Source: a virus
Lineage: Duplodnaviria > Heunggongvirae > Uroviricota > Caudoviricetes
Direction: 5' to 3' (one strand)
Length of the DNA stretch: 48,822 nucleotides
Virus record (IMG/VR): IMGVR_UViG_2541047788_000006
Shown here piece after piece: positions 3,077-48,822 of this stretch (position 1 is its first letter; every line of letters begins with the position of its first letter). Made by a program: the position numbers and the translations under genes. The notes beneath the pieces were generated by a model that did not search any database, was not told the origin of the DNA, and saw only the letters and a program-made list of their open reading frames with translations.

Positions 3077-4271
<1,195 letters not shown>

Positions 4272-5082: not shown

Positions 5083-7997
5083 TATGCAAGCCTCACAATG
5101 TAGTTAAATGCGATGTTTTTGACAGTGTTTTCCGCGTTACCAGCAGCGTTAACGGTGATGGTGTGTCCATGTGAGCCAATCGCAACAGAGTGCGTATGAG
5201 CACCAATACCGACAGTATGTGCGTGAGCACCTGCAGATGCAGCTGTGCCGCTGACACTATGAGTGTGCGCTCCTGCAGCACTTGTATTCACACTGGCCGC
5301 AGACACTACCTTATGTACTGACCCATTTTGTGACCACTGGCTGACTGCTGATGCGCCTGTGACACTATGAGTATGGTTTCCGGCACTTGCGGCTGTACCG
5401 CTCACACTGTGCGTATGCGCCCCGGTGTTATTCGTGGATTTAGTGCCGTAATCAAACGACGATGTGGTTTTCGTCCCCAAATCCGTACTGGATGCACTGG
5501 CGCTGTGGGTGTGCGATTTAATGCCGTCCTGTTCCTGAGACAATACGGCCCGACCACTGGCAGGTTTGCCCTTAATCGTCCAGCCACGCATATCAGGGAT
5601 CACGCCTGACGGATAAGCGGTTGCAAGTTTCGGGTAAGCGGATTTGTCAAAAGTCTGCCCCTGCATCAGGGCATAACCAGACGGAACGGTATCTGATGGC
5701 CACGGGATTGGTGCGCCAGGCGGATAAAACTGCTCTGATGGCGTATAGAGTGAATAAACTGTACCGTCCGTTAACCCTTCCGGCTTATTAGCAGAATATG
5801 CTGGTGACGTATGAATAGTCACGCTGGCATTACTGGTATAATCCCATTGAATATTTACACCAGTCGCATAATTTCCGATTGCAACGTAAATATCGTAAGT
5901 ATCACCAGATGTATTGACCCAGGCAAAATTTGTAAACCCTGTCGATGTGCGCTGCCATAAAGCACCAGTAATCCCCTTCGGATTACCATTACCTGCACGC
6001 AAAACAAGTTCAGATATACCTGCCTGTTGAGGTGACCCCACGTTAAATCCCGCGCCACCAATCAACGTAATTGAAACAACAGAACTCGCCTGTGGCATGG
6101 TTACCGTTGCTAATTTGAACCAACCAGCACCACCGCTGAATGACATTGTTGTTGAGTTAAGCGTACCAATATCTTTCGGCGTCAGTGTTATATCCGCTGA
6201 AAGCGCCTTACCATTCACCTTACGGGCAGAAGGTACCCGACCATTCGCATTATCATTAGCTGCTTTCACTGCTTTCGGTGTCGCGGCAAGCGTTTCAGAT
6301 GCGCTGTTGGTTGCACTACTGAGCTGGACAATTCCTTTTTGTGCTGTCGTAGCGTCCTGAGCAGTATATTTCCCGTTAGCAAGGTCATAGGCTGCCTTTA
6401 CCGACTTTGGCGTTGCCGCCAGCATTTCAGATGTGCTGTTGGTCGCGCTGCTGAGCTGAACTATCCCTTTTTGTGCTGTCGTTGCATCCTGTGCGGTGTA
6501 TTTCCCGTTAGCCAGCTCATACGCGGCCTTAACGGCTTTTGGCGTTGCCGCCAGTGACTCGGAAGTGCTGTTAGTCGCACTGCTGAGCTGTACTATCCCC
6601 TTTTTCGTCGTGCTCGCATCCTCAAGCGCCACGGCGGATGCAATATCCTCTGCCCGTTTTGCCGCTGTCTCGGCGCGCGTTGCCGCGGATTCCGCCGTAC
6701 TTTTGCTCTGAGCTGCCGCCGTCGCACTGCCAGCTGCCTCTGTCGCCTTCGTGGATGCCGTCGTGGCGCTGCCCTTTGCTGCTGACGCCTGTCTGGTCGC
6801 CTCATCTTTTGAAGCAGACGCAGATGATGCCGATGACGCCGCCGAACTGGCGGACGATGCGGCAGCCGTTTTTGAGGATTCTGCGCTGGTTTCCGACGCT
6901 TTCGCGTTCGTCTCGGATGTCTTCGCTGCGGAAGCAGACCTCGCTGCTGCGCTGGCCTGTTCAGTGGCTTCGCCAGCCTTCGTTGTGGCTGTTGAAGCGG
7001 ACGATGCGGCGCTTTCTGCCGATTTTCCGGCAGCGGTGGCACTGGCTGAGGCCTGCCCGGCACTTGTTGACGCGGCACTGGCAGACGACGCAGCCGCTGT
7101 TTTTGAGCCTGCCGCAGCTGAGGCGCTCTGTCCCGCTGCCGTCTCAGAAGACCTGGCGTTCGTCTCGGACGTTTTTGCCGCCTTCGCGGAATTTGCTGCC
7201 GCCGTTGCCGAGGAAGCTGCGCTACTGGCGCTCGAGGATGCGTTCGTTTCTGATGATTTTGCCGCCTCTTTTGAAGCCGACGCATCCCGGGCTGAGGTGG
7301 CAGCTTCTGACGCTTTCGTGGTCGCGGTGGATGCAGAAGTGGCGGCTGATTGTTGTGACGCTGCAGCATTCGTTTCTGACGTTTTCGCGGCAGCGGCACT
7401 GGTAGCTGCCGCGCTTTTTGAGGACTCTGCAGCGGCAGCACTTTTTTCCGCTTCAGTGGCCTTTGTTGATGCCGTTCCTGCGCTGGAAGACGCTGACTGA
7501 GCCGACGAAGCGGCCTGTCCGGCTGACGTGCTGGCTGCACGTGCTGAATCTGCAGCATCAGTCGCATGGGTTGCCGCCTCACGGGCAGATGTGCCGGCAT
7601 CACTGGCTGACTTCTTCGCGGCTGCCGTGTTCTGTGCCACCACGGACGCGTTACGCGCCACCTCTTCCACCATCTGTTCAAAACGGCGCAGTGCCTCCGG
7701 ACGGGCATCATCCTCCGTCATGGCACCGAGAAAATCATTCAGCGTACCGGGTTGAGAATCTTCATACACGGTGATGGTCCCGGCATGTGACGGCGGGAAT
7801 CCTTCCACCAACAGAATAACGCTGTACTGCCCGTACTCAACGTCCATGCTGTAACGCCCGGCTTCATCCGGATTTTCTGAGGCCAGCGTGTTCACCACCA
7901 CCGTGGTGCTGTTACGTTTTGCTTTCAGCTGGATTGTGCAGTTCTGTACCGGTTTTCCTGTGCCGTCTTTCAGTACACCTGAAATCTTTACTGCCAT
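5082..7997 (-). CDS. stf: side tail fiber protein (Stf)
   Basis: N-terminus [26 protein letters not shown] resembles lambda Stf; long Ala/Ser/Thr-rich segment, three 44-aa tandem repeats and C-terminal His-x-His repeats. Start taken at ATG 7997 (the ORF track begins at the upstream GTG 8003). Confidence 0.9.
6250..6700. repeat. three in-frame tandem 132-bp repeats inside stf
   Basis: Repeat units begin at 6301, 6433 and 6565 (period 132 bp) and encode the 44-aa unit [44 protein letters not shown] three times. Confidence 0.75.
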
Positions 7998-36189: not shown

Positions 36190-36345
36190 TTACTCCTCAG
36201 GTTCGTAAGCTGTGAAGACAGCGACCTCCGTCTGGCCGGTTCGGATTCGTACCTCGCAGAGGTCTTTCCTCGTTACCAGTGCCGTCACTATGACGGTTAA
36301 ACAGATGACGATCAGGGCGATTAACATCGCCTTTTGCTGCTTCAT
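36190..36345 (-). CDS. hokD: Hok-family type I toxin
   Basis: 51 aa MKQQKAMLIALIVICLTVIVTALVTRKDLCEVRIRTGQTEVAVFTAYEPEE; the ORF track's in-frame upstream extension (to 36402) would be mok-like leader. Confidence 0.9.
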   Translation of the reverse strand: MKQQKAMLIALIVICLTVIVTALVTRKDLCEVRIRTGQTEVAVFTAYEPEE

Positions 36346-37467
36346 AGCCTGCTTCTCCTTGCCTTTCGGCTCGTAAGAGGCTAACCTACATGTGTCTAGC
36401 ATGAAATTGGCCTCAGATTAATGTTAAGCGTCTTGCAGGACGCGTAATGTTAACTGGGGCTTTTCTCTATCTGCCTTTGGTGTTCATGCCCGAGGCAGAT
36501 AGCCTCAAGCACCCGCAGCCATTCTACTTAACTACCGTTACCTCGCCAATATGAAATCAGTCAGAAAGGCGATCCATAAGAACAATAGCAAGACAATAAA
36601 TCGCCATTACAGCCGTAATAGCCAGCGCACATTTGAGAACCAGCACCACAACCTCCTGTATTGGACGTAGACCAGTCCTGATGAATATGAGGCTGTCTCG
36701 TCAGTGATTCAATACAACTATTGGGTATAGTTTCTCTGATTTTTTCTGTGGAAATGGGGCACAACCACTAGTCACCACCAGCACTTCTTTTAATACGCAA
36801 AGTCCGACACAAGCTAACCTTCTAGTCCGCTTTGAGCGAAAAACAGCCATAATTTAGTGCCACGTATATAATGATAGAGCTATTCAAGCTAGCAATTCAC
36901 ATGTAAAAATTCAGAGGGTAGAAGCACATAGTTATAAATGTTGGCTCCATCGACAAATTGCGGTCTCAAGTACATTTATTAATGTTGCCCCCGCATTAAC
37001 AAATCATCAAGGTGACGACATGGACGATATTAATATCAGCCTCGACGAACTTAACACTATTGATTTATCCCCCTTAATCCAGAGTAAGCTGCCAGTTACC
37101 TGCTTTGATATCACAAAGTATCTTTCTAGCCTAGGTGATGGAAGAGCGGAGATAAGACTGCTAACCCATATTTGCGGTTTTCACTTTCGTCCCGAAAATC
37201 CACAGGTACCATTTGGTCCGTGCTTTCAAAGCAGCCAAGGTAGATCTGCAATTCCGGATGACATTAACGGGTTGTCGCTGGAGGTACTTTCTCAATTTTG
37301 CCCGACGATAGAGCTACCCGAACTTCAAGCTCGTATTGCTGATACACTTTGGGTTCGTAAAATTGGTGGAATCCGTTTTCCTTTGCTGGCAGTCCGTGCT
37401 TATTATGCGTCCAGTATAGCTATTATGACATCGCAAGGGACGTGGGTTAGTGCTTTAGAACGCCTAG

Positions 37468-38662
<1,195 letters not shown>

Positions 38663-40224
38663 CTAGAGCGTGCGCTTAGGCTGTGTTGTTTTTTTCGAAA
38701 GAATACTGATTTCAGGGATGAATTTGATCAGCTTTCGGCACATCTACTAGCAGAGTATGAACGTACCAGAGAACAAGGCGATTCACCTTATCCGCTGCGA
38801 CTCCTGCAACTCGATATCGACTGTAAAGTGAGTGAGCCATCTTTTATTGCCCAGGAACTCCTGTTTCTGACAAAAAACTATCTGGCTCAAAAATTATTTT
38901 CATTTGCCGTCGATGCCTGTAAAACCGCAATCACGATTGCGAATAGGTGCTGTGACAGAGATACACAGTTTGAATTCTGGCGGCTTCTTGCCGATACACA
39001 TCTGGAAGAGTCAAAATTCCAAGATGGCGGTATGATTTCGGCAGCCTGCATGCAGAATGCTATTGAAGCACTGGCTAATATTCCAGGAACCCGAATAGAA
39101 CGTCTTGCGCTGTATGAAGAAATGCGTGATTACCAAATCGAATCCCGTCACCAGATGTCTATCCTTCAGTCTCCCCCTCAAGATATTAGTGAGATTGTCC
39201 ATCAAGCCAAGAGTCGGGTAGTCGGAAGAGATATGTTTGATATGGTTTTCAGACTTGCGATGCTGGTCTGTCGGCCAACCAGCATTGAGAGACTTAAGGC
39301 TCAAGCAATAGAACAAAAGGCCAACAGCATAGCTTGGATGTTTGGATCAACACATATTGATCATGAGGGAATGACACTTGCTCGCATACCCGCAGGATTG
39401 GGGATTGATGATGCAAATGGGGCAGTTATTTGGCCCATAATGATGACGAGAATGCGTATCGACCATGAGTTGGCAGTAGCTGGGCAAATTATTCCTGCTA
39501 CAGATGAGATCACAATGAAATATCCAATCTCGGAGGCGTTTTTTCGCGATATGTTCATCAATCATCCCTTCATCCCGTTTGGGCATGAAGAGTTTTTCAT
39601 CAAGGGTATGGTTTGCGGTTTCAATGGAGATTTTATGACGGCATGCCACGTGTTGATTCCCCAGATCGAAAATAGTCTGAGATATGTGGCTAAAATTAAA
39701 GGTGAGGAACCATCGCAGCTTCACGGGGACGGTTCGCAAGAGCGAAATGGACTCAAGGGATTACTAGATAATCCACTGATTATTGAAGCTTTCGGCGTAG
39801 ACATAATTGGCAATCTTCAGGCCTTACTGGTAGATAAAATCTATGGTGATTTACGAAATCAACTAGCTCACGGATATGTGCCTGCCGGTTACTACAATCA
39901 ACCTCCCTGCATTTTTGCATGGTGGCTTGTATTGCACATTCTAATGAACCCTACGGCGAGATACTGGCAAGCCACTTATGGCCAAGAGAGTGAGGCTCAG
40001 ACTTAAAGTGAATAAGTTTACGAAGTTGGCACTTCCGGATGCATGTCCATATGAGTTGAGGCGATTTGGTTAATAAGGTTGAGTGCTGCTGAAATTATTC
40101 GATGTCCGCTTTTGGCACAAAGCGGACAACCACGCCAGATCTACCCTGTGCCATGAAAAATGAGAATGTCAATTCACTCCTGAACTAATGCTTTTTAATC
40201 TAGTAACGTCTAAAATACCTAACA

Positions 40225-40626
40225 TTATCCCTGATAAAATGCCAGTATGCGCTGCATAACTTCACTCATCCGGCACTCGCGACAGATTATGTTTAGGCGA
40301 CTGTCGTAGCGACGTATTTCTCCATCAGGTAACGACCAGATAAGGTCCGGATCAACCACAGCTGTTTTCTTCACCTTTGCCCTCGAGAGTTTTTTGCGGG
40401 CGTTTTGCCAGTCCTTACGCGCCTGTTCAGACGGGAATAACCCGTAGCCGGAGTTGTATACATCGCCACTGGCTACCAGCTCTCTGGCAAGAACGCTCAT
40501 CAGATATCTAGTCGCACCTGTTTTAGCTTCCAGTTGCCGTAACGTCTCACGACCGCTCTGGCGCACGAGTTCCACCACCTGCCCTTTAATTTTTTCCCGC
40601 TCTTCTTGTGTAAAAACTTTTGCCAC
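40225..40626 (-). CDS. hypothetical early-region protein
   Basis: 133-aa ORF downstream of the O-like replication gene; no recognisable motif. Confidence 0.4.
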   Translation of the reverse strand: MAKVFTQEEREKIKGQVVELVRQSGRETLRQLEAKTGATRYLMSVLARELVASGDVYNSGYGLFPSEQARKDWQNARKKLSRAKVKKTAVVDPDLIWSLPDGEIRRYDSRLNIICRECRMSEVMQRILAFYQG

Positions 40627-40666: not shown

Positions 40667-41686
40667 TTATCCTCTGAAACCAGGCGGAATTTCTGTATCC
40701 GGTTCAGAAATATGATTAACACAACGCTGTACAGGTGAACGCCCCAGGCGGATGACCAGTTCGTCCCATTTTTCGCGGAGCTTTGACGGGCTCATGATGT
40801 TTTTTACCCAGAATGGATCCCGCTGTACCCGACCAAACATTTCACAAATTTGTCTGTGGCTTCTGCCATCCAGCATCCGCATTGTGCGCACATCATTGGC
40901 CCAGACAGTCCAGTTAGGCTCTTTTGGTCGCATGATCTCGCCATCATCACTGGCGGCCTGTTCGTAGAGACCCACGATCCGCCCCCATATCCACTGCGCA
41001 CACGCCAGATCCTCCTGGCTACCCCACTGGCGTTTTTTCGCACTAAACACAACTGCGCCAGGGTGCCGGATTAAAAAATCCTGTTCAGCCGTCTGCGGGT
41101 CCGGTTGCGAAGCTTCCGGACGAAAAGTGTTTTTATTCTCTGTAGTAATCTCTGTTGTATTCTCTGTAGGATCATCGGGCCATTTTGACCCGATGACATT
41201 GGGTCGTTTTGAACCAATGGAGCGTTTCATTTTGACCTCTTCCATCGTGTCATTTTGACCTGATGGAGCGGCGCATTTTGAACCGATGGATTCGCTCAAT
41301 TTGCCATCATCTAAAAGCTCGCTTCCATAGTTAATCGTGTAGAAATTGGTCATATCGCGCTTTGATTTATTGAGCTTTTCACAACGCAAAAGCCCCAGCG
41401 TTTTCAGACTTGCAAACGCGCGCTTTAACGTTGACTCTGACCAGAATGGGAACTGTTCCAGCCATTGTTCCGTTGTGTTGTAAATCCAGCGAACACCATC
41501 ACATTCCATGCCGGAATTGGTATCTCTCAACCAGTAATGCAACTGCTGCAACACAATGGCTTCATTTAAGCCAATCTTCATCGCAAGCTGTGTGTTTATA
41601 ACCAGTGGGCGTTCAGCAAAAAGAAGGCTCATAATTCCATCCAGCTTTTTGTTGGTATTGCTGTCGATACGCAAGTTTGAAAGCAA
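40667..41686 (-). CDS. replication initiator (lambda O-like) with internal origin iterons
   Basis: 339-aa ORF; five ~23-bp iterons lie inside the coding region and translate to repeated SIGSK/IGSK peptide motifs, as in lambda O/ori; start may be the internal Met near 41632. Confidence 0.65.
   Translation of the reverse strand: MLSNLRIDSNTNKKLDGIMSLLFAERPLVINTQLAMKIGLNEAIVLQQLHYWLRDTNSGMECDGVRWIYNTTEQWLEQFPFWSESTLKRAFASLKTLGLLRCEKLNKSKRDMTNFYTINYGSELLDDGKLSESIGSKCAAPSGQNDTMEEVKMKRSIGSKRPNVIGSKWPDDPTENTTEITTENKNTFRPEASQPDPQTAEQDFLIRHPGAVVFSAKKRQWGSQEDLACAQWIWGRIVGLYEQAASDDGEIMRPKEPNWTVWANDVRTMRMLDGRSHRQICEMFGRVQRDPFWVKNIMSPSKLREKWDELVIRLGRSPVQRCVNHISEPDTEIPPGFRG
41175..41300. repeat. origin-type iterons (5 copies, ~23-bp period)
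   Basis: CATTTTGACC-type repeats at 41181, 41205, 41228, 41251 and 41274, each followed by YGATGGA-like sequence; flanked at 41121..41160 by short ATTCTCTGTAG repeats. Confidence 0.6.
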
Positions 41687-42134
41687 TTGCTTTTTCTATA
41701 AGTTCGTCAGTTTCACGATCCACTACGGCAGGATCAGCAAAAAGCAGTCCGGACTCCACCACATCGCCATATTCTTTGTTTAACCCGGCGATCATGTACG
41801 TGATGCTTTTTCCGTCACTAATTTCACGATACAACCTGAAATCATTAATCCGGATAGCCTCCATAATTGCAGGCACTAGCGCCGTGAACTTTTCACGCTT
41901 ATCCCTGGTGTCGATAGCCTTCCAGCGTTCGAATATCTTCACTCGATTAACGCCAAGCGCTCGCTGATCAACCGCGCCACCTTCATCTGTGACACGCTGA
42001 ACATCGATGTTCGGGCGCTCTTTCAAAGCCCAGAATGCTTCAGTGATTAATATCGTCGCCTGCTCCTGTGTCATTCCTGGTCGACATATCCAGGCATCCA
42101 GAGCCTCACGAGCCTGTTCAGGAGTGATTTTCAT
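41613..42134 (-). CDS. hypothetical early regulator (occupies the cII position downstream of the cro-like gene)
   Basis: 173-aa ORF immediately downstream of dicC-like gene; assignment by position only. Confidence 0.4.
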   Translation of the reverse strand: MKITPEQAREALDAWICRPGMTQEQATILITEAFWALKERPNIDVQRVTDEGGAVDQRALGVNRVKIFERWKAIDTRDKREKFTALVPAIMEAIRINDFRLYREISDGKSITYMIAGLNKEYGDVVESGLLFADPAVVDRETDELIEKAIAFKLAYRQQYQQKAGWNYEPSFC

Positions 42135-42354: not shown

Positions 42355-42410
42355 AGTATTGAGTTTTCTCAATGCTAATCACTCAAGGAATCTCAAGTCA
42401 AGGGTTATTA
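42355..42410. promoter_or_regulatory. candidate operator region between divergent dicC-like and dicA-like genes
   Basis: Palindrome TTGAG-TTTT-CTCAA (42359..42372) and nearby direct CTCAAG repeats in the intergenic region. Confidence 0.35.
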
Positions 42411-42422
42411 AGATATCTAAAT

Positions 42423-42830
42423 ATGAACGAGAAAACTTTAGGTCAACGCATTAGAGAAAGACGTAAGCAGGTAGGTTTAAGTCAAAACGGTTTAAGCAAA
42501 GCTGCTGGCGTATCTGGCTCATCAATTTCATTATGGGAAAGTGACCATACAGCCCCGCGCGGGCAAAATTTGCATCGCCTCGCCGAGGTATTGCAATGTT
42601 CACCAACCTGGATACTGTTTGGCGACGAGGACAAAACACCAGCTCCCCCTGTTTCACTCGATAGTGCCTTAGACTTATCGGAAGATGAGTTAGAGATGCT
42701 GCGTTTGTATCGCGCACTTCCTAAATCAGAGCAACAAGCACAACTCAGCGAACTCCGCGCCCGCGTTGAGAATTTTAATCGCCTGTTCACCGAGCTATTA
42801 GAGGCTCGCAAACGCAACAAGCATCAATAA
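42423..42830 (+). CDS. dicA: HTH_XRE-family repressor (DicA/CI-like)
   Basis: 135 aa; N-terminal HTH (LGQRIRERRKQVGLSQNGLSKAAGVSGSSISLWE) and ...VLQCSPTWILFGDEDK... resembling DicA as recalled; start at the ATG 42423 inside ORF 42372..42830. Confidence 0.8.
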   Translation: MNEKTLGQRIRERRKQVGLSQNGLSKAAGVSGSSISLWESDHTAPRGQNLHRLAEVLQCSPTWILFGDEDKTPAPPVSLDSALDLSEDELEMLRLYRALPKSEQQAQLSELRARVENFNRLFTELLEARKRNKHQ

Positions 42831-44711: not shown

Positions 44712-47183
44712 ATGAGTAAAGTCTTTATTTGCGCCGCTATTCCTGACGAACTGGCAACAAGGGAAGAAGGCGCTGTGGCTGTAGCCACAGCCATTGAAGC
44801 TGGCGACGAACGCCGTGCTCGAGCAAAATTTCACTGGCAATTCCTGGAACATTATCCGGCTGCTCAGGACTGCGCTTATAAATTTATTGTCTGCGAGGAT
44901 AAACCTGGCATACCCCGCCCTGCCCTCGATTCATGGGATGCTGAATATATGCAGGAAAACCGCTGGGATGAGGAGTCTGCTTCTTTTGTCCCGGTTGAGA
45001 CTGAATCCGATCCGATGAACGTCACTTTTGACAAGCTGGCCCCTGAAGTACAGAACGCTGTCATGGTTAAGTTCGACACATGTGAAAACATCACCGTTGA
45101 TATGGTTATTAGCGCACAGGAATTGTTGCAGGAAGACATGGCAACATTCGACGGACATATCGTTGAAGCGTTGATGAAAATGCCAGAAGTTAACGCCATG
45201 TATCCGGAGCTTAAGTTGCACGCCATTGGGTGGGTTAAGCATAAATGTATTCCTGGTGCTAAATGGCCCGAAATTCAGGCAGAGATGCGCATCTGGAAAA
45301 AACGTCGCGAAGGTGAACGCAAGGAAACCGGAAAATACACGTCTGTTGTTGATCTCGCCCGCGCCAGAGCCAATCAACAGTACACTGAAAATTCAACAGG
45401 AAAAATCAGCCCGGTCATTGCTGCCATTCATCGCGAATACAAGCAGACATGGAAAACACTGGATGACGAACTGGCCTACGCTCTCTGGCCTGGTGATGTG
45501 GATGCCGGAAACATTGACGGCAGCATCCATCGCTGGGCAAAAAATGAAGTTATCGATAACGACCGCGAAGACTGGAAGCGTATCTCGGCATCAATGCGCA
45601 AACAGCCTGATGCCCTTCGCTACGACCGCCAAACTATTTTTGGCCTTGTCCGTGAACGTCCGATCGACATTCACAAAGATCCCGTAGCACTGAACAAATA
45701 TATCTGCGAATACCTGACGACAAAGGGCGTGTTTGAGAATGAAGAAACAGACCTGGGCACTGTTGATGTTCTCCAGTCATCAGAAACACAAACTGATGCA
45801 GTGGAAACTGAGGTATCTGATATCCCAAAAAATGAAACCGCGCCGGAAGCTGAACCATCTGTAGAGCGTGAGGGGCCGTTCTATTTCCTCTTCGCAGATA
45901 AGGACGGAGAAAAATACGGTCGCGCAAACAAACTTTCTGGTCTGGATAAGGCACTGGCTGCTGGCGCCACTGAAATCACAAAAGAAGAATATTTTGCCCG
46001 AAAAAATGGCACATACACGGGCTTACCGCAAAATGTAGATACCGCTGAAGATTCAGAACAACCAGAGCCGATAAAAGTTACCGCTGACGAAGTAAACAAA
46101 ATTATGCAGGCAGCCAATATCATCCAGCCTGACGCCGATAAGTTGCTTGCTGCATCACGTGGTGAATTTGTTGAAGGGATTAGTGACCCGAATGATCCGA
46201 AATGGGTTAAGGGGATCCAGACCCGCGATTCTGTGAACCAGAACCAGCATGAATCGGAACGGAACTACCAAAAAGCGGAACAAAACAGCCCAAATGCGTT
46301 ACAAAACGAGCCAGAAACGAAACAGCCTGAATCAGTGGCGCAACAGGAAGTGGAAAAAGTCTGCACCGCCTGCGGTCAGACCGGCGGCGGCAACTGCCCT
46401 GATTGTGGCGCGGTAATGGGCGACGCAACATACCAGGAAACATTCGATGAAGAGTATCAGGTTGAAGTTCAGGAAGATGATCCGGAGAAAATGGAAGGCG
46501 CTGAACATCCACACAAGGAGAACACTGGCGGCAATCAGCATCACGATAGCGATAATGAAACTGGCGAGACGGCAGATCACTCAATTAAGGTGAACGGTCA
46601 TCACGAAATCACATCCACCAGCAGGACGTGTGACCATCTAATGATCGACCTTGAAACCATGGGAAAAAATCCTGATGCCCCGATCATCTCAATAGGTGCA
46701 ATATTTTTCGATCCGCAAACCGGAGATATGGGACCGGAATTTATTAAGACTATCGATCTGGAAACTGCTGGCGGAGTCATTGATCGGGACACCATTAAAT
46801 GGTGGTTTAAGCAATCACGCGAAGCGCAATCTGCCATTATGACCGATGAAATCCCGTTAGATGATGCACTGTTACAATTGCGGGAATTTATCGACGAAAA
46901 CTCCGGTGAATTTTTTGTTCAGGTCTGGGGAAATGGAGCCAACTTCGACAACACGATTTTGCGCCGTTCATACGAACGGCAGGGGATCCCCTGCCCGTGG
47001 CGTTACTACAACGATCGCGATGTACGCACAATCGTTGAGCTGGGGAAAGCCATAGACTTCGATGCCAGAACGGCTATTCAATTCGAAGGTGAGCGCCATA
47101 ATGCACTTGATGACGCCCGTTACCAGGCAAAATACGTTTCAGTTATCTGGCAAAAACTGATCCCGAGTCAGGCTGATTCTTAA
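44712..47183 (+). CDS. ydfE: large early-region protein with C-terminal DnaQ-like (DEDDh) 3'-5' exonuclease domain
   Basis: 823 aa; C-terminal ~190 aa contains MIDLETMG (Exo I), a middle acidic motif, and HNALDDARYQAKY (Exo III with His); upstream CxxC...CxxC zinc-ribbon (CTACGQTGGGNCPDCG); occupies the exo/recombination position upstream of xis-int. Confidence 0.75.
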   Translation: MSKVFICAAIPDELATREEGAVAVATAIEAGDERRARAKFHWQFLEHYPAAQDCAYKFIVCEDKPGIPRPALDSWDAEYMQENRWDEESASFVPVETESDPMNVTFDKLAPEVQNAVMVKFDTCENITVDMVISAQELLQEDMATFDGHIVEALMKMPEVNAMYPELKLHAIGWVKHKCIPGAKWPEIQAEMRIWKKRREGERKETGKYTSVVDLARARANQQYTENSTGKISPVIAAIHREYKQTWKTLDDELAYALWPGDVDAGNIDGSIHRWAKNEVIDNDREDWKRISASMRKQPDALRYDRQTIFGLVRERPIDIHKDPVALNKYICEYLTTKGVFENEETDLGTVDVLQSSETQTDAVETEVSDIPKNETAPEAEPSVEREGPFYFLFADKDGEKYGRANKLSGLDKALAAGATEITKEEYFARKNGTYTGLPQNVDTAEDSEQPEPIKVTADEVNKIMQAANIIQPDADKLLAASRGEFVEGISDPNDPKWVKGIQTRDSVNQNQHESERNYQKAEQNSPNALQNEPETKQPESVAQQEVEKVCTACGQTGGGNCPDCGAVMGDATYQETFDEEYQVEVQEDDPEKMEGAEHPHKENTGGNQHHDSDNETGETADHSIKVNGHHEITSTSRTCDHLMIDLETMGKNPDAPIISIGAIFFDPQTGDMGPEFIKTIDLETAGGVIDRDTIKWWFKQSREAQSAIMTDEIPLDDALLQLREFIDENSGEFFVQVWGNGANFDNTILRRSYERQGIPCPWRYYNDRDVRTIVELGKAIDFDARTAIQFEGERHNALDDARYQAKYVSVIWQKLIPSQADS

Positions 47184-47526: not shown

Positions 47527-48822
47527 ATGAGAGAAGTTGAAATGAAATATCCGACAGGCGTGGAAAACCATGGAGGGAAATTACGTATCTGGTTTGTTTA
47601 TAAAGGCGTAAGAGTCAGGGAAAACCTGGGGGTTCCTGACACAGCAAAAAACAGGCGCGTTGCAGGTGAGCTACGCGCCTCTGTTTGTTACGCAATAAAA
47701 ACTGGTGTTTTCGACTATGCAAAACAGTTTCCCTCCTCACGCAATCTGGAAAAATTTGGTGAGGCCCGACAAGATTTAACCATAAAAGAACTGGCTGAAA
47801 AATTTCTGGCACTGAAAGAAACTGAAGTCGCAAAAACATCACTCAACACATACCGTGCCGTCATCAAAAATATCCTGAGCATAATCGGTGAAAAAAATCT
47901 TGCCTCATCGATTAATAAAGAAAAATTACTGGAGGTTCGTAAAGAGCTACTGACTGGATACCAGATCCCCAAAAGTAACTATATTGTTACACAACCAGGG
48001 AGATCGGCTGTAACTGTAAATAATTACATGACAAATCTTAACGCCGTGTTCCAGTTTGGTGTTGATAACGGTTACCTGGTAGATAACCCGTTTAAGGGGA
48101 TCTCGCCATTAAAGGAATCAAGAACCATTCCGGATCCTCTTTCGCGGGAGGAATTCATCCGTCTTATCGATGCGTGCAGAAATCAGCAAGCCAAAAATTT
48201 ATGGTGTGTTTCTGTTTATACTGGCGTTCGCCCTGGTGAGCTGTGTGCACTTGGATGGGAGGACATAGATCTGAAAAATGGAACAATGATGATCAGGAGA
48301 AATTTAGCAAAAGACCGTTTCACGGTACCAAAAACACAGGCGGGAACCAATCGGGTCATTCATCTTATTAAGCCAGCAATCGACGCTCTCCGGAGTCAGA
48401 TGACATTAACGAGACTGAGCAAAGAGCATATCATTGATGTTCACCTCAGAGAGTATGGCAGAACAGAAAAACAAAAATGCACCTTTGTTTTTCAACCTGA
48501 AGTGTCAGCGAGAGTAAAAAATTATGGTGACCATTTTACCGTTGACTCAATAAGGCAGATGTGGGACGCAGCGATAAAACGTGCCGGACTCCGCCATCGA
48601 AAATCATATCAGTCGAGACATACTTATGCCTGCTGGTCGCTGACAGCTGGTGCTAACCCGGCATTTATAGCAAACCAGATGGGCCATGCAGATGCGCAAA
48701 TGGTATTTCAGGTATACGGAAAATGGATGTCTGAAAACAATAATGCACAGGTAGCTTTGTTAAATACACAGTTAAGCGAGTTTGCCCCAACCATGCCCCA
48801 TAACGAAGCAATGAAAAATTAA
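47527..48822 (+). CDS. int: tyrosine-type phage integrase
   Basis: 431-aa ORF; C-terminal catalytic region with R...HxxR...Y pattern (SRHTYACWSL...HADAQMVFQVYGKWM); stop TAA at the window end; start may be 47542 (MKYPTG...). Confidence 0.9.
   Translation: MREVEMKYPTGVENHGGKLRIWFVYKGVRVRENLGVPDTAKNRRVAGELRASVCYAIKTGVFDYAKQFPSSRNLEKFGEARQDLTIKELAEKFLALKETEVAKTSLNTYRAVIKNILSIIGEKNLASSINKEKLLEVRKELLTGYQIPKSNYIVTQPGRSAVTVNNYMTNLNAVFQFGVDNGYLVDNPFKGISPLKESRTIPDPLSREEFIRLIDACRNQQAKNLWCVSVYTGVRPGELCALGWEDIDLKNGTMMIRRNLAKDRFTVPKTQAGTNRVIHLIKPAIDALRSQMTLTRLSKEHIIDVHLREYGRTEKQKCTFVFQPEVSARVKNYGDHFTVDSIRQMWDAAIKRAGLRHRKSYQSRHTYACWSLTAGANPAFIANQMGHADAQMVFQVYGKWMSENNNAQVALLNTQLSEFAPTMPHNEAMKN

Follow-up and report, generated by a model that had tools for sequence, protein, structure and literature searches.

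Origins of replication embedded in the initiator gene of a lambdoid phage are well known. In the lambda sequence, four annotated iterons cover O residues 117-145 with spacings of 20, 24 and 23 bp, and they are palindromic with a TCAAAA centre. In plasmids the exact sequence of the repeats of the unwinding element matters (review PMC5043065), and an earlier study described DopC, an O-like protein that carries the C-terminal motif of DnaT (Brezellec et al. 2017, PMC5509034). Here we describe what is very probably another origin of the lambdoid kind, carried by the IMG/VR virus record IMGVR_UViG_2541047788_000006, a stretch of 48,822 nucleotides (called the window below) that holds a complete lambdoid E. 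coli prophage. An array of iterons lies in the linker-coding part of the prophage's own O-like initiator gene, in the early-right operon, and sequence comparison strongly favours the view that this array is the vegetative replication origin (ori). Its anatomy, its non-randomness, the selection acting on it as DNA, its conservation together with the N-terminal domain (N-domain) of the initiator and the covariation between protein and DNA are direct results of the computation.

The sequence-only reading of this DNA had placed five iterons at about 23-bp spacing inside the O-like coding sequence, followed by short repeats in the direction of transcription, and both were found where it had put them (Table 1). 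The iterons follow the consensus CATCGGGTCA-TTT-TGACCCGATG, in which 10-bp inverted arms surround a 3-bp centre; the arms match each other at 9, 8, 5, 8 and 6 of 10 positions in the five copies, and the start-to-start spacings are 24, 23, 23 and 23 bp. In relatives from Citrobacter, Klebsiella and Enterobacter, all with 6 copies, the unit matching the degenerate sixth copy is a good iteron. The five iterons make up the segment coding for residues 115-154 (residues 108-154 with the degenerate sixth), and this segment sits between the N-domain, which extends to about residue 108, and the C-terminal domain (C-domain), which starts at about residue 183. They are translated in all three frames, since 23 is not a multiple of 3. 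The proposed translation as repeated SIGSK motifs consequently holds for three of the five, which read (S/V)IGSK, and fails for the other two, which read SGQND and EVKMK. One motif read in three frames indicates that the iteron repeat is selected as DNA and not as peptide.

That the array arose by chance is excluded. Of the 1217 zones of 160 bp compared across the window, it alone held a cluster with 5 copies (11-mer, at most 2 mismatches), and none of 300 dinucleotide-preserving shuffles of the gene reached even 4 copies. Counting a 10-mer or 11-mer over the whole window had been discarded as a test, being uninformative when taken alone (9 copies vs 5.2 expected, and 16 vs 9.2), and the clustering statistic was used instead. 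No further iteron-like cluster of the same motif was found elsewhere in the window. A search for DnaA boxes returned no TTWTNCACA within 40667-41632 and a count at chance level over the whole window. The window-wide repeat scan also gave four other 4-copy 11-mer clusters, at 6659-6776, 7248-7374, 46647-46782 and 47796-47889. The first two lie in a tail-fibre-like open reading frame (ORF) of 973 amino acids (aa), their copies stand at intervals divisible by 21 or 3, and they are probably coding repeats; of the remaining two, one is in the exonuclease gene and one, TCAAAAATATC, with spacings of 34, 34 and 25, is at the start of the integrase ORF.

Relatives of the initiator were sampled as one genome per species, which gave 80 loci, 76 of which were analysed. 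The N-domain family is large, counting 10,285 cluster representatives (E<=1e-3) and 139 phage records. Enterobacterales, Pseudomonas, Acinetobacter and Comamonas all have the N-domain, and versions about 50% identical are present in Staphylococcus, Bacillus and lactobacilli. Most loci continue, within the same gene, with 3-6 palindromic repeats spaced 22-24 bp, and after these repeats 55 of the 76 loci, across phyla, have 2-5 tandem 12-mers of the form (T/A)ACAGAGAnTAC. The sequence-only reading had named the absence of the repeats from functional relatives as the observation that would count against it; they are present both in distant relatives and in the virion-isolated phages HannyBb, mEp460_ev081 and PhiR42_1, where the gene and its repeats are 97-98% identical and the same initiator-only layout is followed by a Ren-like gene. 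For the initiator of mEp460_4F5 the protein identity is 71%. In Klebsiella phages the N-domain, the iterons and the 12-mers are retained, but the C-domain is a different one, the Pfam domain Phg_2220_C. In Pantoea phage AH07 the protein is 39% identical, the 12-mers are exact, the iterons are altered (GGGCAATTTGCCC) and the C-domain is again replaced by Phg_2220_C. The genes after the initiator also vary: a loader and DnaB follow in S. aureus phage phiIPLA88, a primase-helicase in Pseudomonas phage AF, and neither here. N-domain, iterons and 12-mers thus recur together whichever C-domain or downstream genes accompany them, like a single cassette for origin recognition to which interchangeable recruitment ends are joined.

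Several observations accompany this survey. A scan of viral contigs returned only sequences with an identical N-domain and added no diversity, and literature searches on the ori of the N-domain family and on mEp460 replication gave nothing specific. Many longer proteins of the family (400-880 aa; for example P0125, P0130 and P0147) hold two matched N-domain stretches, which points to initiators with tandem domains, perhaps encoded by plasmids or integrative elements. Three loci assigned to Veillonella parvula, Bacillota and Collinsella bins of metagenome-assembled genomes (L007, L008 and L055) have an N-domain 100% identical to that of the E. coli prophage and are most likely mis-binned E. coli prophage DNA.

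Across the loci the iteron core reads NNN-CA-NNN-TG-NNN, with flank triplets that are specific to the lineage. Among the alignment columns, mutual information with the triplet class peaks, at 1.81 bits, in residue 67, which lies at the beginning of helix 66-78 (FPFWSESTLKR). Ser67 accompanies GGT in 18 of 19 cases (the other being Ala), Asp67 goes with GGG or GTG in 13 of 13, Lys67 with GGA in 6 of 6 and Met67 with TAT in 2 of 2. The correspondence is not mere shared ancestry, as close relatives can differ in class and class changes have arisen independently more than once: L020 (Lys, GGA) and L029 (Asp, GGG) share 89% identity, L056 (Ser, GGT) and L066 (Met, TAT) share 77%, and L077 (Lys, GGA) resembles members of other classes more than it does the remaining Lys/GGA proteins. 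These comparisons suggest that the N-domain reads the iterons and that a single residue tracks its specificity.

Because the gene is on the minus strand, transcription reaches the 12-mers after the iterons. The least stable 40 bp of the gene, at 41123-41163, coincide with them: the computed free energy is -45.9 kcal/mol vs a gene mean of -56.4 (standard deviation 3.6), which is the 98th percentile of the window. GC content in the 12-mer stretch is 32%. The segment 41121-41172 is 67% AT and 60% purine on the coding strand, compared with 74% AT and 67% purine in the lambda region, so that the asymmetry is weaker here. No single-strand structure was found for the 12-mer stretch on either strand. 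By analogy with known origins, the 12-mers would be the site of DNA opening.

We also asked whether the repeats could be mere coding repeats for a linker peptide, or a linker for recombination where two modules meet, with no role in cis in replication. The 12-mers always stand in one frame, encoding TE(N/I/T)T, and they occur exactly where C-domains are swapped between phages, both of which speak for such an explanation. To compare codons, the repeats were located by peptide alone and the codons counted afterwards. Results showed that the Glu codon of the 12-mers is GAG in 122 of 122 cases vs 46% elsewhere in the same genes, and that the first Thr codon is ACA in 110 of 110 vs 24% elsewhere in the same genes, while invariant residues of the N-domain use all synonymous codons (for example Glu24, with GAA 53 times and GAG 21 times). 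Synonymous sites are therefore saturated in this sample except in the 12-mers, which argues that the 12-mers are constrained as nucleic acid, and frame constancy was rejected as a decisive sign of purely peptide-level constraint because these sites are frozen. The synonymous sites are invariant across phyla, and recombination linkers would not persist between Firmicutes and Proteobacteria. The iterons, for their part, have a 23-bp period, use three frames, are palindromic and covary with an N-domain residue. Taken with the codon counts, this makes an explanation by coding or linker repeats extremely unlikely. A literature search with the 12-mer as a text string returned unrelated primers only.

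Just past the 12-mers stands an inverted repeat with a predicted hairpin of -9.4 kcal/mol (z = -2.2), and lambda has its counterpart at the equivalent place, with 12-nt arms (L002 1163-1190). A perfect stem of at least 6 follows the 12-mers in 29 of 55 relative loci vs 36 of 720 control segments of the same genes. The stems vary by lineage (GGTTGC/GCAACC, GGTTTC/GAAACC, GGTTCC/GGAACC and GGCTCA/TGAGCC), and Firmicutes have unrelated ones. In Edwardsiella and Scandinavium relatives (L018 3480-3530 and L047), the DNA after the 12-mers, CGTC..GGAATTCTGGCGAATCC..GAC, closely resembles the lambda ori inverted repeat GTCAGAGAATTCTGGCGAATCCTCTGAC, and this makes a direct connection between the cassette and the lambda-type C-domain junction.

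A different reading is that the initiator-bound array is mainly regulatory or serves titration (autoregulation of the operon, handcuffing and copy control, or exclusion of related phages), with replication starting elsewhere in the prophage. Covariation speaks to binding and not to initiation, plasmid iteron arrays are generally known to have control functions as well (review PMC5043065), and the prophage encodes no helicase loader. These points are outweighed by the fixed order in which array, least stable DNA and inverted repeat are coupled, just as they are in the proven origin of lambda, by the lack of a second cluster of the motif in the window, and by the fact that in other phages the cassette travels with diverse helicase and primase genes. 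We therefore regard a mainly regulatory array as very unlikely and keep to the reading of the array as an origin.

Table 1. Positions of the origin elements, initiator domains and adjacent genes in the window.
Feature	Position	Strand	Description
O-like replication initiator gene	40667..41632	-	321 aa, ATG at 41632; from the ORF list
N-terminal DNA-binding domain (predicted)	41309..41632	-	aa 1-108; Ser67 codon 41432-41434
Degenerate sixth iteron GATTCGCTCAATTTGCCATCATC	41289-41311		Promoter-proximal, in 23-bp phase; 13/23 to consensus, CAnnnTG core kept
Iteron GAGCGGCGCATTTTGAACCGATG (+ strand)	41266-41288		First strong one in transcription direction; 18/23 to consensus; read SIGSKCAAP
Iteron CATCGTGTCATTTTGACCTGATG (+ strand)	41243-41265		21/23 to consensus, dyad 8/10; another frame, PSGQNDTM
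Iteron GAGCGTTTCATTTTGACCTCTTC (+ strand)	41220-41242		15/23 to consensus; third frame, EEVKMKRS
Iteron CATTGGGTCGTTTTGAACCAATG (+ strand)	41197-41219		19/23 to consensus, dyad 8/10; read SIGSKRPNV
Iteron CATCGGGCCATTTTGACCCGATG (+ strand)	41173-41195		Last in transcription direction, adjoins the 12-mers; 22/23 to consensus, dyad 9/10, near-perfect palindrome
Three tandem 12-mers TATTCTCTGTAG / TAATCTCTGTTG / TATTCTCTGTAG	41134-41169		Coding strand (T/A)ACAGAGAnTAC; encode TENTTEITTENK
Inverted repeat GTCCGG-(11)-CCGGAC	41099..41121		Arms 41099-41104 / 41116-41121; just past the 12-mers
C-terminal domain	40748..41086	-	aa 183-295; lambda-O-like; modelled as helical, pLDDT 65-83
C-terminal tail VNHISEPDTEIPPGFRG	40670..40720	-	Nearly identical to the E. 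coli DnaT tail; aligned to PDB 2ru8, 6aep and 9zbt_D
DUF977 / Ren-like gene	40225..40626	-	Pfam PF06163, E 6e-27; PHROG 142 'Ren-like exclusion protein'
cII-like / YdaT-family gene	41613..42134	-	Pfam PF06254; PHROG 163 'CII-like transcriptional activator'
Candidate pR-like promoter, upstream of the cro-like gene	42372..42401	-	Consensus scan, TTGACT-18-TAGCAT; consensus match only
cI-like repressor	42372-42830	+	From the gene order of the operon

The initiator itself is a composite protein. Its N-domain had no Pfam match even at E<=10, while lambda O scores 5.7e-36 to PF04492, and PDB sequence searches with the whole protein and with the N-domain profile found no relative besides the DnaT tail. 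An AlphaFold2 (AF2) model with a mean pLDDT (predicted local distance difference test score) of 54.8 has a helical N-domain with a hairpin and a helical C-domain. Foldseek of this model against the PDB gave weak matches (E>0.1), all of them winged-helix domains; used as a hint, the model being poor, they indicate that the N-domain is probably a winged-helix fold. Residues 84-175 are modelled with pLDDT below 50, and the stretch coded by the ori (aa 115-167) falls inside them and is probably a disordered linker. The C-domain is 34% identical to that of lambda O over 148 aa (BLASTP, E 3e-27). The last 17 residues of the protein, VNxxSEPDxxIPPGFRG, match the DnaT C-terminus; with NCBIfam NF002770 (DnaT) the score is 16.2 bits vs a cut-off of 201 and the alignment is confined to the last 20 residues, so that the protein is not a full DnaT. 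Many relatives from Enterobacterales have the ending ..P.GFRG irrespective of which C-domain they carry, whereas in Bacillus relatives the tail is acidic-aromatic, for example FRFDDET. No stated role for the extreme C-terminal tail of DnaT was found in a 2026 preprimosome structure paper.

Concerning gene identity, the longest ORF reaches a TTG at 41686, and the start is most likely the ATG of Table 1, which gives 321 aa as in the phage relatives. The ORF is full length. It matches PHROG 391 'replication initiation O-like' at E 3.5e-92, residues 35-339 of the long ORF corresponding to profile positions 11-298 of 298, and the annotated initiator of phage HannyBb is of equal length and 97% identical. 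In E. coli genomes the name given by NCBI's Prokaryotic Genome Annotation Pipeline (PGAP) is 'hypothetical protein'; the same 5 kb is present in 143 complete E. coli genomes. On the minus strand the genes run from the immunity region as cro-like, cII-like/YdaT, O-like initiator, DUF977/Ren-like and so on to Q-like, lysis, terminase, head and tail, with integrase and exonuclease at the opposite end of the window. The cII-like/YdaT gene is directly upstream and overlaps the initiator start by 20 bp (41613-41632). Database proteins of 448 aa (P0002-P0004) combine a YdaT/cII-like Pfam domain with a stretch 97-98% identical to the initiator over 99% of its length; they look like fusions of the two genes and could be frameshift variants, sequencing errors or gene-calling artefacts. 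An Rfam search of 39.9-43.3 kb gave no match.

Directly downstream of the initiator, in the slot that P occupies in lambda, is the DUF977/Ren-like gene, and Pfam and PHROG searches found no P-, DnaC- or DnaB-like gene adjoining the initiator or between it and the Q-like gene. This raises the possibility that the architecture of the origin is intact and the module is crippled, a cryptic remnant. Two copies of the insertion sequence IS5 are consistent with decay, with 338-aa transposase ORFs at 3223-4239 (-) and 37500-38516 (+). On the other hand, the virions of HannyBb, mEp460_ev081 and PhiR42_1 share the initiator-only layout and have 97-98% identical ori DNA, the initiator ORF has kept its length, and the 37.5-kb IS5 stands in an accessory gene of the opposite strand, outside the replication genes. 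Based on these relatives, a non-functional module is unlikely. The sequence-only reading had spoken of an intact replication module; this is plausible, as functional phages have the same layout, although a P-like helicase-loader gene is missing.

Regarding the surroundings, the second IS5 appears to cut the accessory gene in two, leaving a part of 156 aa at 37020-37490 and a DUF4209 part at 38828-40006, the latter matching just the C-terminal half of PHROG 5183, and some E. coli genomes carry this region without the IS. A small ORF at 36190-36402 (-), between the replication genes and the Q-like gene, resembles the MokW/hok-like host-killing family (PHROG 251, E 7.6e-33).

Considering these elements together, a mechanism can be proposed. 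Transcription from the pR-like candidate would cross the cro-like, cII-like and O-like genes, expressing them, and would pass through the ori. Dimers of the initiator N-domain would then bind the five or six iterons (41173-41311), and the nucleoprotein array would strain the adjoining 12-mers until they melt, so that the helicase could be loaded there, ahead of the inverted repeat. The lambda-O-like C-domain and the DnaT-type tail may bring in the host helicase machinery, DnaB-DnaC, via a primosome partner; recruitment from the host is proposed because the phage encodes no P, DnaC or DnaB. We infer both this mode of recruitment and replication activity by analogy, and recruitment of DnaB-DnaC through a primosome partner, a hypothesis only, is the weakest step.

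The 12-mers may have a more specific part. They are kept beside lineage-specific iterons from E. coli to Staphylococcus and are then followed by a hairpin-forming inverted repeat, and for this reason it is conceivable, as a tentative proposal that we hold to be rather less than probable, that they are a sequence-specific origin element beyond an AT-rich melting zone, for example a single-strand or second-mode binding site of the initiator or a loading signal. Joined in the same proposal are the residue-67 code, a large origin-recognition cassette (about 10,000 protein clusters) that code and 12-mers would define, and interchangeable helicase-recruitment ends, among them a tail that mimics DnaT and could lead the origin into the PriA/DnaT primosome pathway of the host.

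Some points weigh against reading the locus as a lambda-type origin. The searched literature contained no experiment on binding, opening or replication in this initiator family. Lacking a helicase or loader gene, the module could be incomplete, and the passage from open complex to helicase loading is conjecture. The N-terminus of lambda O had no similarity to the N-domain by BLASTP, and hhalign of the N-domain profile gave a probability of 0.1%. The fold of the N-domain comes from a low-confidence model and weak fold matches. In addition, the constant frame of the 12-mers leaves room for a further constraint at the peptide or mRNA level, and the related loci are not phylogenetically independent, so that Fisher p-values overstate significance, although the codon contrast is still plain.

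With the origin located and both initiator and ori intact, the result bears on whether the prophage can still replicate after induction. The comparison of the family predicts the sequence that the initiator binds, the residue that sets its specificity, the opening site and a conserved 12-mer as part of the origin. Moreover, the initiator-only layout with its DnaT-type tail offers a simple system for the recruitment of a host helicase by a phage origin without its own loader. What goes beyond the textbook, judging from the sequences, is a family of putative iteron-binding domains with no Pfam model or solved structure, a 12-mer shared across phyla, the tracking of specificity by residue 67 and a loader-less module with a DnaT-type tail; no paper in the searched literature describes any of these four.

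The comparison with lambda ori that the sequence-only reading had called for revealed the same three parts in the same order and at the same place in O. In both, dyad iterons with a TCAAAA-type centre stand about 23 bp apart at the corresponding position within the initiator ORF (aa 115-154 here), then come an AT-rich, purine-skewed stretch and an inverted repeat, and the whole lies downstream of cro-/cII-like genes and a pR-like promoter, with homologous initiator C-domains. The proposed ori-in-O architecture is thus borne out in position, dyads, spacing, melting zone, inverted repeat and C-domain, with an N-domain outside the lambda O family. At least four dyad repeats lie between the domains, a melting zone comes directly after them and an inverted repeat beyond, as in an origin of the lambda type; membership in the lambda O family extends to the C-domain, while the PF04492 N-domain and the O-P module are absent. 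The differences are that the N-terminal iteron-binding domain is unrelated in sequence, that there are 5-6 iterons of 23 bp here vs four of 18-19 bp in lambda, that the AT-rich zone consists of three conserved 12-mers here vs an irregular purine run in lambda, and that a DnaT-type tail is present here and a P gene is not.

Iteron plasmids (RK2 oriV/TrfA, F/RepE, pSC101 and R6K) also have phased iterons adjoining AT-rich short tandem repeats, the plasmid 13-mers, and the 12-mers here are likewise constrained in sequence. In contrast, plasmid iterons bind monomers and are non-palindromic whereas those described here are palindromic, DnaA boxes are usual in plasmids and none was found in this ori, and plasmid origins are outside the initiator coding sequence. 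DopC differs in that no iterons are detectable at the dopC locus (PMC5509034), vs a full predicted ori here, and with E. coli DnaT the likeness is confined to the tail. Initiators of Firmicutes phages, annotated as 'DnaD-like helicase loader' or 'replication initiation protein' (for example phiIPLA88 gp17), have their own loader and DnaB-type helicase directly downstream and differ in C-domain and tail. They nevertheless share an N-domain that is about 50% identical and 3 in-gene iterons with a GGACAAAATG core at 22-23 bp spacing, followed, as in the E. coli prophage, by 12-mers of a degenerate CAGAGA type.

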